Shown here in pieces: positions 12,001 through 15,000 of a stretch of DNA of 64,000 nt. How positions within the stretch are numbered: the first letter of the stretch is position 1; every line of letters begins with the position of its first letter. The DNA comes from a virus. Lineage: Duplodnaviria > Heunggongvirae > Uroviricota > Caudoviricetes. The position numbers were made by a program. The stretch lies in the IMG/VR virus record IMGVR_UViG_2703718787_000017; one strand, written 5' to 3'.

Positions 12001-15000
12001 GGGAAAATTCCGTTATAAAGTGCCTGACGTCGAAAACGGCGATTTGAGCGCGTCATCATCGCAGGATGAGAATATCACGCACGAAGCAGAAAACAGCGCG
12101 TCAGGCGACGAACTGAATCGTTTTCCGTTGATGTCAGAGGGCACGGCAAAGGCCTGTACAGATGAGTTTATCCGGGATGTTCCGTCGTTCACCGAAAAAT
12201 ATGCTGGTGCAGTGACCCTTCCACCTCTACGGGCCGCCAGTCGTGAACTTCGTCGCGCCAAAAAACAGGTCCAGAAGTGGGAGCGTGTCTGTGCTGCACT
12301 ACGTGAGCTGAATAAACACCGGGAACTTGTCATGCAGATTACCGATTCATCCAGCAGTATTGCATCGGAAAAGTGATAACTGGAGAGCTTATGGCAAAAG
12401 TATTTACACCCGAACAGCGGGAAGAACTGAAGGCACGTATTGTGGAGCTCGTGCGCCTGAATGGTCGGGGAACGTTCAGGCAACTGGCTACTGAAACCGG
12501 AGTCAGCAAGACAGCTGTCAGACGTTTGTCCAGAGAACTGGTTGTCAGTGGCGCTATATTCGACTCAGGTTATGGTTTATTCCCGTCTGATCAGGCGCGT
12601 AAGGACTGGCAAAATGCCCGCAAAAAACTCTCGAGAGCAAAGGCAAAGAAACCGGTTGTTATTGACCCTGGTCTTATCCGGGCATTACCTGATGGGGAAA
12701 TCCGGCGCTACGACAGACGCTACAACATAATTTGTCGCGAGTGCCGTAACAGCGAAACGATGCAGCGTGTGCTGGCATTCTGGCGGGGGAGTGCAGAGGG
12801 ATTGATGTTCTCCCCGTCGTGAATGACGGGGGCTTACGTGTTCAGAAAAGTGATTCATATAGAGGCTGAATCTGATCTTTTTTGTTCACGTCTGGCTGCC
12901 ACCATTGCAGGCAGAGTGAAGGCGTAGACTAAAAACATTTCGGTAAAACTCAGGATCTGGCTTGCCTCAATTGGTGTGAAAACTTCATCTGTATGAACTG
13001 CTTTATTGGCATCAATTCGTACAATATGAGCCCATTCCTTCATCTGTTCAGTGATCAGCCCTTTTTTGTAAATCATCTGAATACGTTGCGACAGCGATTC
13101 TTTTCCTGCTTCATCGCCGAGCAGTTTTTTCGTGGAGATATCGAGGACTCTGCGACAAAGAATTACCACTGTGTCGTACCGCCTCCTCTGTAAATCCTCT
13201 TTTGCCTCAACAAAAGTACGGTCTGCAACCGGGGGCGTATATTCTGGTGCGGTAATTTTTTTGACCGCAGGATAGATCTTGCGGAAACGGTACTGGCTAT
13301 TTCCTGAAATCAGAATATCGAGGTCTTTTTTCTGGCTTTCCGCCATGGGGCCGTGATAGTGGTCTGATGGGATTTCAACAATAGCAACACCTCCTCGATG
13401 ACAACTTCTGCATACAAAAGCGACGTTAAAAAGAGGTGTTTTTTCAATTTGTTTTTCGGCAAATGCCTCAATAACAGCTCGCTCTTTTAAACAGTGTGGG
13501 CATGTAATGTCAAAGGAGACTAAACTCATGGATATTCCTCTCGAAATTAAAGAAATTAACGAAATCATTGAGGTTACTGATCGCCCCGAGTTTACCCTCA
13601 TGCGTCGTTATGAAACAGGAACCGACGAACAAAAATACATCATGGTTGCAGCATTGGCTGTGATGGCGATAGAAAGGGAGCGGAGGGAAAAGGACGTAAT
13701 GGTTATTCCGGCGAGAAATGATTCACCGGATTTGAGATGGCAGGATCCGGAGTGGGATGTGGCAATCCGGTGATTGATATTTCTCTGGGGTAAAGCGCCG
13801 CCAGAATGACGGCGCGGTGGTTAAGCATGAGGCGAAATTTCTGCCGGGCGGTATTTTGTTGAGAGATGAGATACGTCAACTTCTCTTTCCGCTTTTTCAA
13901 GGCTCCATGCCGTCTGGAGACGAATCCATGAAGACGGAGTTCCACCCAGGACAGCAGCGAGACGAACAGCCATTTCAGGAGATATTGTCGCATTACCTGA
14001 AACCAGTCGCTGAACAGTGGAAGGCGCGACATCAAGCGCTCTTGCCAGTTCCCTGATTCCAATATTCTGATCTTCCAGAATATCAGCAATAATTTCTCCG
14101 GGATGAGGGGGGTTAAACATCGCCATTAGTGGTAATCCTCGTAGTTAAGAATATAAGCATCGCCGTTCCGAAACTCGAATGTGATTCTCCAGTTACCGGA
14201 GACGGTGACAGACCATGTATCGGATCTGTCACCCTGCAACTGGTGCAGCCTGTACCCGGCAAGGTTAATATCATCAATGATTTCAGCTTGATCTATTACC
14301 TGAAGGCGCGTTCTCAGGCGTTTAACGTGATTGGGATTTACGCCTGATGCATTTCCTGTTTCAAAGAAACGTTGAAGTCCTTTGTGTTTCCAGCTTTTTA
14401 TCATGCTTGTTTCCTGTTGCGTTACGCGAATCATTATAGCGACTGTTGTGTAATGCGCAACGGTTGTTTGACAAAAATAGGTATCCGGGATTATATTCTT
14501 CGCACGGTCGAGTTGACCGTCGGGATTGGAACCCCGGATAGAGACCGCGACAAACACACGCCGCGAGCGTGTTTTTTATTGTCGTATGCACGCGCACATC
14601 TGAATTATGGTGGGGCGCATGGGGGAGCTGAAAAGCTCGCCGGTCGGTTTCCCGGTAGTTCCAACCCTGTGCGTCTCACCACCCGATGATTGGAACCTTA
14701 CGGTGGTGATAGTTTAGAAACCACTAGAGGGCGTCATTATGACAACTCAAGTTTCTGTTGAAACTCTTTCCCCGATCACCCACAACCAGATCCCAGTTAT
14801 TACAACTGAACTTCTTGCCCAGCTTTACGGCACAGATGTAACTAATATTCGCAAAAACCACAGCCGAAACCATGAACGTTTTGTTATTGGTAAACATTAT
14901 TTTTTGCTGGAAAGTGCAGAATTGCGTGAGTTTAAGCACAGAGTGTCTTTAAGTCACTCTGTGACAATCGCCCGTAACGTTCGCTCCCTCATCCTCTGGA

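Follow-up and report, generated by a model that had tools for sequence, protein, structure and literature searches.

A predicted RAZR-like zinc-ribbon HEPN RNase and a divergent small gene with an overlapping start codon in a Stx1a lambdoid prophage

Between the replication genes and ninB of a 64,000-nucleotide stretch of viral DNA (IMG/VR record IMGVR_UViG_2703718787_000017, Caudoviricetes; hereafter the window, numbered from its first letter) two genes stand head to head with overlapping start codons. The locus raises the question of what the larger gene, which encodes a zinc-ribbon protein of 224 amino acids (aa), does in its phage, and whether the small gene facing it belongs to the same unit. 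An initial annotation of this DNA had read the region as a defence or abortive-infection island. Our analysis points to the larger protein as a distant homologue of the anti-phage RNase RAZR and to the small gene as its partner in most of the loci in which the family occurs. The features on which the argument turns are as follows, with + and − for the strands.

12834-13825, both strands: two-gene mosaic module, the block shared with phages of different flanks
12855-13529, −: predicted RAZR-like RNase gene, 224 aa, zinc ribbon and DUF4145/HEPN
Residues of the 224-aa protein: zinc ribbon, about 1-55; proline-rich linker, about 80-100; HEPN domain, about 100-222, with R171, N175 and H179
13528-13773, +: small partner gene, 81 aa here and 54-93 aa in relatives; WP_000354190.1 in the NCBI annotation pipeline (PGAP)
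13527-13530, both strands: CATG, a palindrome in which the start codons of the two divergent genes overlap
13514-13519, +: AAGGAG, Shine-Dalgarno sequence of the small gene, 8 nt before its ATG and within RNase codons 4-6
13537-13542, −: GAGAGG, Shine-Dalgarno-like sequence of the RNase gene, 7 nt before its ATG and within small-gene codons 4-5

The minus-strand open reading frame (ORF) of 224 aa with its CPHC…CRSC ribbon is present as first described, and all four cysteines (C10/C13 and C40/C43) are invariant in an alignment of 34 homologues. So are its first methionine and, in the motif RIDANKAVH, residues R171, D173, N175 and H179. A longer reading of 248 aa is possible from 13601 (−); the 224-aa form is the one annotated by PGAP (WP_000060692.1), which calls both genes of the pair with exactly the limits listed above. 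Residues 118-197 match DUF4145 (PF13643) with E = 3.8e-9 and 36.9 bits against a gathering cutoff of 23.1, which bears out the DUF4145 assignment that had been offered with doubt. DUF4145 is listed among the families of the HEPN superfamily, which is defined by an alpha-helical fold and a conserved R-x4-6-H motif and in which zinc-ribbon fusions are known (Anantharaman et al. 2013, PMC3710099). The alpha-helical fold is found here as well: an AlphaFold2 model (predicted local distance difference test score, pLDDT, 90) has a helical C-terminal domain behind a beta-rich N-terminal domain with strands at residues 4-6, 20-27, 33-40 and 46-52, and the family profile weakly matches the zinc ribbon of RPB9 (E = 0.23). 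The R-x3-N-x3-H motif had been flagged as not of the textbook HEPN kind, and its R-x7-H spacing does lie outside R-x4-6-H; it is the spacing of RAZR, with whose catalytic R146 and H154 R171 and H179 are aligned.

The 83 homologues of the 224-aa protein come nearly all from Enterobacterales. Within the family the zinc-finger half diverges more (mean distance 0.56) than the HEPN half (0.39), and the ratio of non-synonymous to synonymous change (dN/dS) of the RNase gene is 0.16. Its phrog_1305 label, 'DNA binding protein', is an automatic one. A literature search returned no experimental work on this family, and a search by accession, for WP_000060692 and WP_000354190, gave no match.

RAZR, formerly PD-T7-4, is a protein of 219 aa from E. 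coli UMB1727 (Zhang et al., Nature 2026, PMC13017515; PDB 9Y9C/9Y6U); the system was discovered in 2022 and its mechanism was published in 2026 (PMC13017515). Its N-terminal Cys4 zinc ribbon is joined by a conserved linker to a DUF4145 HEPN RNase domain, the zinc-finger domain has been superposed on the RPB9 zinc ribbon (PDB 1QYP), and alanine at either R146 or H154 abolishes defence (PMC13017515). RAZR works as a single protein and is non-toxic alone, even when overproduced without a trigger; it is activated as a 24-mer around ring-shaped phage proteins, namely the Erf-like recombinase Gp77 and T7-type portals, and then cleaves single-stranded RNA nonspecifically (PMC13017515).

For comparison, the full-length E. 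coli RAZR (RAZR-Ec) was rebuilt from overlapping fragments, and the result fits the published numbering (AGN 68-70, R146, H154). BLASTP aligned the 224-aa protein with it at 27% identity over 109 residues (E = 1e-5), the proline-rich linker included, and in three independent alignments RIDANKAVH fell opposite RIVGNQAVH of RAZR. Profile-profile alignment of the two families with hhalign gave E = 2.8e-5 and a probability of 74% over 84 columns. The profile of the 224-aa family also matches PDB 9Y9C (E = 0.06), and it is needed for this, as a phmmer search of the PDB sequences with the 224-aa protein itself returned no match. In PADLOC, which had been proposed as a check of the region, PD-T7-4 is the model that draws the largest number of family members (16 of the 34 at E ≤ 0.01, the best of them at 2.8e-7).

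The two families share much: a length of 219 against 224 aa, an N-terminal Cys4 ribbon that starts with CPHC, a proline-rich linker, a C-terminal DUF4145/HEPN domain with the motif RIxxNxAVH and R-x7-H between the catalytic residues, and a zinc-finger half that varies more than the HEPN half. They also differ. The identity of 27% is confined to linker and HEPN domain, and the match of the window protein to the PD-T7-4 model is weak. The close RAZR homologues examined (78-88% identical to RAZR-Ec over the query fragment) adjoin an integrase in a chromosomal island, whereas the 224-aa family sits in lambdoid prophages, mostly with a partner. RAZR is a single-gene system, and in six loci of its close homologues the small divergent gene was not found even at E ≤ 10, whereas 61 of the 93 loci retrieved with the profile of the 224-aa family carry it. 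By its sequence, then, the 224-aa protein has the architecture and catalytic motif of RAZR and is its distant homologue in linker and HEPN domain, in a distinct family; we regard that family as a new family-level variant of RAZR-type zinc-ribbon HEPN RNases. By homology, the protein is probably an anti-phage effector, and the defence reading of the initial annotation is thereby backed by an experimentally characterised relative of the same predicted architecture.

Two observations concern RAZR itself. The protein database, searched with the RAZR fragment, returned N-terminally truncated (146-177 aa) or frameshifted entries and never the full 219 aa. Several publicly annotated RAZR-family genes start inside the zinc-finger domain, and the zinc ribbon is thus lost from the annotation. 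DS-38 of DefensePredictor, a validated 'HEPN + zinc finger' system, was considered as a relative and is a different protein, whose 366 aa start with the HEPN domain and have the zinc fingers at the C-terminus (WP_001313577.1).

The small gene encodes a protein whose conserved core, residues 1-56 (DRPEFTLMxRYET...QK...V.A.IG.LIE.DR), is followed by a variable tail that is predicted to be disordered. It matches phrog_8371 over 81 of 81 residues (5.5e-56), and no family of Pfam, NCBIfam or PADLOC matched it. How far the family reaches depends on the search: a direct protein search found E. coli sequences only, at least 81% identical, and an exhaustive phmmer search of 1.84 billion cluster representatives found six relatives, while translated searches of phage contigs recovered ORFs of 54-93 aa on the same CATG, with the core motif invariant, at loci where the RNase is just 40-50% identical. 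The gene is intact yet uncalled by gene finders in loci L005-L008 (position 4844-5002) and in many IMG/VR loci, which leaves the family systematically under-annotated. Across 37 distinct DNA sequences of the gene, dN/dS is about 0.25, the entropies of the three codon positions are 0.95, 0.78 and 1.38, with third positions most variable, and many synonymous codons are used for the invariant Arg, Pro and Leu residues. Low dN/dS together with free synonymous change indicates purifying selection on the protein and not just a conserved promoter, and the ORF is accordingly a real gene. A structure model that rests on a shallow alignment has a three-helix bundle at residues 5-56 (pLDDT 81-88 over residues 1-57). 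The ORF had been characterised as acidic, with a perfect AAGGAG before it; both traits are present here and both belong to the E. coli version, not to the family. The isoelectric point of 4.5 is that of the E. coli protein alone, and for this reason the idea of an acidic decoy was rejected as a family property.

The unusual arrangement of the starts, in which each gene's translation signals lie in the other's first codons, is borne out by CATG, AAGGAG and GAGAGG at the positions listed. The same CATG occurs in every locus with an intact small ORF, and it recurs in dozens of loci whose two proteins share just 35-50% identity with those of the window; recurrence in such diverged loci argues for an arrangement beyond chance. 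AAGGAG, in contrast, is not conserved in the upstream sequences of relatives. Two further signals were considered for expression:

13589-13594, −: TAAACT, weak candidate -10 element of the RNase gene, antisense of the small gene's invariant E-F-T codons
13796-13818, −: GC-rich 9-bp hairpin after the higA stop codon, terminator-like, with a tail of three U only

TAAACT is the best promoter-like match on the minus strand, at a score of 4.8, below the background median of 6.6. The codon of Phe22 is TTT in 30 of 37 distinct small genes, with TTC outside the five commonest codons, a preference that keeps A at position 2 of the -10 sequence TAAACT; TTT is also preferred elsewhere in the small gene, and TAAACT as the -10 element of the RNase gene is speculative. 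The hairpin folds at -16.5 kcal/mol on the minus strand (z = -2.65; the plus strand is not significant) and sits in the overlap of the block shared with Shigella phages and the block common to other Stx phages. It looks like a weak terminator, and read-through from the higBA promoter into the RNase gene is therefore possible. Rfam gave nothing significant inside the module; the sole match that touches it, HgcC at 12789-12906, is at chance level (E = 0.28; 18.7 bits, where the gathering score is 50).

Do the two genes belong together? In Escherichia phage PhiR12_3 the match spans precisely 12834-13825 (96% identity), between Roi on the upstream side and another toxin-antitoxin pair on the downstream side, and with Shigella phages 75/02 Stx and POCJ13 the block is common up to 13818. 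The RNase gene and the small gene thus move as one mosaic unit. The 93 loci hold 63 distinct RNase proteins, and the small gene is adjacent and divergent with the CATG overlap for 38 of them. Its bearers include Photorhabdus, Tatumella, Symbiopectobacterium and a Zoogloeaceae genome, in which (locus L064) adjacency is kept although the RNase gene is 35% identical to that of the window. Of the 32 loci without the small gene, 23 form one clade of 212-aa proteins at the lysis-terminase site, and several others have a decayed remnant; together, 25 distinct intact RNase proteins are without it. Pairwise distances of the RNase and the small protein are correlated (r = 0.74), those of the small protein more closely with the HEPN half (r = 0.77) than with the zinc-finger half (r = 0.54).

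A profile search for the small gene placed it apart from the RNase gene in just one lineage of E. coli, which is nearly clonal, as an 85-aa version with a GTG start (MNNKINIPLEIK...; 12 of the 48 matching E. coli genomes). In these E. coli prophage contigs (L015-L019, L033 and L035; region around 2186-3246) the place of the RNase gene is taken by a gene on the plus strand that encodes 166 aa of unknown function (phrog_25397), after which a TumE-like toxin and a partner with an HVO_A0114-type helix-turn-helix (HTH) follow on the opposite strand. Locus L036 has the same small-gene N-terminus, with the ORF cut to 28 aa, and the recombination junction of the orphan lineage is the small gene's N-terminus, in its first codons. 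The suggestion of a two-gene unit is supported by co-conservation, co-mobility and purifying selection, with two corrections to the earlier reading: the kind of effector is already known from RAZR, and either gene can occur alone. The novelty, within the literature that our search covered, is the conserved partner gene with its overlapping start codon.

The window is a Stx1a lambdoid prophage of E. coli, and the 2 kb around the pair are 100% identical to Stx1a prophages in several complete chromosomes of Shiga toxin-producing E. coli (STEC), for example NZ_CP075852. There a cI-like repressor, a cro-like regulator, cII, a replication initiator, a DnaC-like loader, DUF1627 and DUF977 (Ren-like) genes precede the RNase/small-gene/HigBA region, and antirepressor genes, ninB, ninE, rusA, ninH, Q and stxA1/stxB1 follow it. 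From this order, the early rightward (pR) operon runs along the plus strand; the small gene reads with it and the RNase gene is antisense to it. By identity with NZ_CP075852, stxA1a lies at 20064-21020 (+) with stxB1a downstream, about 6.5 kb 3' of the module, which makes the module cargo of a Shiga-toxin-converting prophage. Its G+C content is 0.43-0.46, against 0.50-0.55 in the upstream replication genes and 0.45-0.52 in the downstream region, which is also below the replication genes. The RNase gene is found in 36 of 5,426 complete E. coli genomes. All family members whose context was read are in lambdoid prophages, either between replication genes and ninB or between lysis and terminase genes, and the genes are mostly antisense to the phage genes on both sides. 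Such a distribution, with antisense placement at variable sites, is the pattern of a moron, that is of accessory cargo, and not of core phage machinery.

Taken together, these data suggest an abortive-infection RNase that is expressed in the lysogen and a lytic-cycle partner that neutralises it, a scheme to which we assign just short of an even chance. The zinc ribbon would sense a protein of the infecting phage, upon which the DUF4145/HEPN domain would cleave RNA via R171...H179. As the RNase gene is antisense to the pR operon, it could be expressed alone, as a moron, in the lysogen, where pR is repressed. Transcription of the small gene would be limited to the lytic programme, run by the prophage or by an infecting copy of the phage; the pR transcript would then run antisense through the whole RNase mRNA before encoding the small protein, and the three-helix protein would neutralise the RNase. 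Ring-forming or structural proteins made by the prophage itself would thus trigger no self-abortion, which would amount to self-immunity and, in superinfection, to counter-defence. Both the type of trigger and the lysogen-on, lytic-off pattern of expression are inferred. Possible self-triggers are encoded in the window, namely a Bet-like single-strand annealing protein at 977-1762 (−) and the portal protein at 30464-32608 (+). Portals form rings, as do Bet proteins of the Red-beta type, and with both kinds present in the same phage the need for an off-switch is plausible. That the small protein inhibits the RNase is, from the position and conservation of its gene, a claim we make tentatively. 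Doubtful, in our estimate, is a wider version in which the small gene is the first of a new family of anti-HEPN immune inhibitors, the conserved CATG overlap is the core of a bistable switch, the RNase alone is made in the lysogen and guards the cell, pR antisense transcription over the ribosome-binding site of the RNase gene both silences it and supplies the inhibitor, Stx-phage induction and toxin release depend on the switch, and the orphan copies are counter-defence against resident RAZR-like proteins.

Several results weigh against this scheme. On the PD-T7-4 model the 224-aa protein reaches just 16.2 bits (E = 1.3e-3), through linker and HEPN domain only; similarity to RAZR is limited to these parts, and the sequences of the zinc-finger domains, which would do the sensing, do not align. 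No similarity of the small protein was detected to Ith-1, the inhibitor of the Tha system compared below, or to any solved structure (Foldseek, all E > 2). Intact RNase genes occur without it in the 212-aa clade and in the decayed loci L090, L092, L106-109 and L129, and the partner is therefore dispensable in some phages. Co-inheritance alone would also give the correlation of distances. Finally, consensus and weight-matrix scans of the module revealed no convincing sigma-70 promoter for either gene, the best scores within it being below the background median.

The evidence for a joint unit would serve equally well if the small protein helped the RNase, as co-sensor, cofactor or transcriptional regulator of its gene in a two-component defence. 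Co-conservation, co-mobility and correlated divergence fit this as they fit inhibition, a predicted three-helix bundle is compatible with DNA binding, and the small protein tracks the HEPN half over the zinc-finger half. The gene, however, faces the lytic way, so that co-expression in the lysogen needs a promoter within the RNase coding sequence, where none was found; the 25 distinct intact RNase proteins persist without it; RAZR acts alone; and the small protein matches no HTH or other DNA-binding family and has a neutral to acidic net charge. We consider a helper role unlikely. Quite unlikely, too, is that the small gene is an ordinary early or nin-region gene with an unrelated job, against whose start codon a moron was inserted at a compact junction that is hard to break. 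It does read with the pR operon, in some phages it ends 4 nt before ninB, the 85-aa E. coli orphans keep it without the RNase gene, and linkage alone accounts for the correlated distances. But outside that nearly clonal lineage it was never found without the RNase gene, the pair has been transferred jointly into different flanks with breakpoints just outside both genes, and adjacency is kept down to the Zoogloeaceae locus; linkage of this kind, if not selected, is normally broken by phage mosaicism.

An HEPN RNase beside a small protein also recalls a classical type II toxin-antitoxin system, an addiction module in which the HEPN protein is a constitutive toxin and the small protein its labile antitoxin, all the more as HigBA, TumE-like and RelE-like pairs flank the module in several E. 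coli prophages. Here, however, the genes diverge and so do not share a transcript, many loci keep an intact 'toxin' gene with no 'antitoxin' gene, RAZR is non-toxic when overproduced without its trigger, and the small protein matches no antitoxin family. We rejected this reading, which we hold to be very unlikely, because the genes diverge and each occurs alone. Highly improbable, lastly, is a role of the 224-aa protein in the phage's own biology and not in defence, for example in processing RNA, controlling early transcripts or binding DNA. The 'DNA binding protein' label, the zinc ribbon and the restriction of the gene to temperate phages could be cited for it; the label, though, is automatic, the catalytic HEPN residues are invariant, and the gene lies antisense to lytic operons, at variable moron sites and in few E. 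coli genomes. Of the readings set side by side here, we prefer that of an RNase active in the lysogen and silenced by its partner in the lytic cycle.

Beyond the small gene stands a second pair of accessory genes:

13821-14126, −: higA antitoxin gene, 101 aa, HTH_3 (TIGR02607, 2e-25; PF01381; PGAP)
14126-14404, −: higB toxin gene, 92 aa, RelE-like (PF05015, 1.4e-21; phrog_3066, 6e-37; PGAP)

The toxin gene comes first and shares base 14126 with higA. HigB scores 77.2 bits on PF05015 (cutoff 27) and HigA 88.4 bits on TIGR02607 (NCBIfam cutoff 47.7), in agreement with the canonical HigB/HigA pair that had been reported next to the zinc-ribbon gene. As a type II toxin-antitoxin system the pair is canonical yet separate from the RNase/small-gene unit, and its block is common to other Stx phages that are without the RNase pair. 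Of the proposed accessory island with stacked toxin-like genes, the adjoining of the modules therefore holds; what we see are adjacent morons, with HigBA apart, and not one system.

Just beyond higB is a near-consensus promoter, TTGACA-18-TATATT, at 14468-14497 (+). Rfam matches above the gathering score follow on the same strand, IsrK at 14504-14577, C4 antisense RNA at 14603-14686 and sRNA-Xcc1 at 15196-15279, along with a sub-threshold match to the c4 a1/b1 target element at 14491-14540. IsrK/C4 and sRNA-Xcc1 each lie upstream of an ORF6N antirepressor gene. The first of these genes, at 14739-15053 (+), is cut to 104 aa, has lost its C-terminus and is a pseudogene in PGAP; downstream of it are a full-length paralogue at 15319-15981 and a Bro-N/P22_AR_C antirepressor gene at 16236-16880. 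The stretches 14468-14703 and 15196-15279 look like a duplicated antisense-controlled antirepressor module of the P1/P7 immI type.

Elsewhere in the window, the peptide QQHQPQQPEADWVNP and its variants occur twice in a short ORF at 9516-9734 (+) and again in a 360-aa replication-initiator-like protein at 9755-10837 (+); the DNA repeats behind these peptides may be origin iterons. A 2,806-aa ORF at 48759-57179 (+) belongs to phrog_616, of unknown function. Its C-terminal part weakly matches DarB-like antirestriction proteins, and the product is a candidate for a very large virion-associated or injected protein.

RAZR is known as a system of one gene. The sister family, which matches it in architecture, is commonly carried by lambdoid prophages, Stx-converting phages among them, and a dedicated partner gene accompanies most of its members. 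If that partner is an off-switch, it would be a natural inhibitor of a RAZR-type RNase and would answer how a prophage with a ring-forming portal and annealing protein spares itself from a ring-sensing defence. In STEC it could then bear on the efficiency of induction and on competition between Stx phages.

Other prophages and phages have solved the problem of an HEPN protein or of self-immunity in different ways. HepS of the Salmonella prophage Gifsy-1, which differs from the 224-aa protein in having no zinc ribbon, is spared self-triggering by a non-triggering structural variant (Sargen et al., Nature 2026, PMC13043305). By analogy, such a variant could explain the 212-aa clade without partner. 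A further case is BstA of the Salmonella prophage BTP1 (Owen et al., Cell Host Microbe 2021, PMC8585504). Its self-immunity element, aba, is reportedly a DNA sequence inside bstA that does not code for a protein, and BstA itself is not known to be an HEPN protein. Dmd of phage T4, an early protein of about 60 aa, directly blocks the HEPN toxins RnlA and LsoA (LsoA-Dmd complex, 5hy3); it is encoded by a lytic phage and not beside a toxin gene.

Similar in design is Tha, an HEPN abortive-infection RNase of Staphylococcus aureus prophages that is triggered by tail proteins (Rostol et al., Nat Microbiol 2024, PMC11087260). Its neighbour Ith, a 66-aa product of an overlapping antisense gene, switches Tha off on induction, an effect to which antisense transcription adds; without Ith, Tha would abort the prophage's own induction, and phages that carry ith evade Tha (PMC11087260). 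The comparison by hhalign gave a probability of 0.2% for the RNase family against Tha-1 and of 0.1% for the small-protein family against Ith-1, that is no homology, and the hosts and phage lineages differ. The geometry differs as well: in 80alpha the two genes converge with a 64-nt overlap of their 3' ends, whereas the RNase gene and small gene diverge and overlap at their start codons. The inhibitory function of the small protein, moreover, is inferred. The pair is thus analogous to, and not homologous with, Tha/Ith. Both consist of a prophage HEPN protein and a small gene that overlaps it on the opposite strand and reads in the lytic direction; phages with the inhibitor alone evade Tha, and the orphan small genes described here would fit the same logic. 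If the small gene does act as the off-switch of its RNase, the pair would be a Gram-negative counterpart of Tha/Ith.

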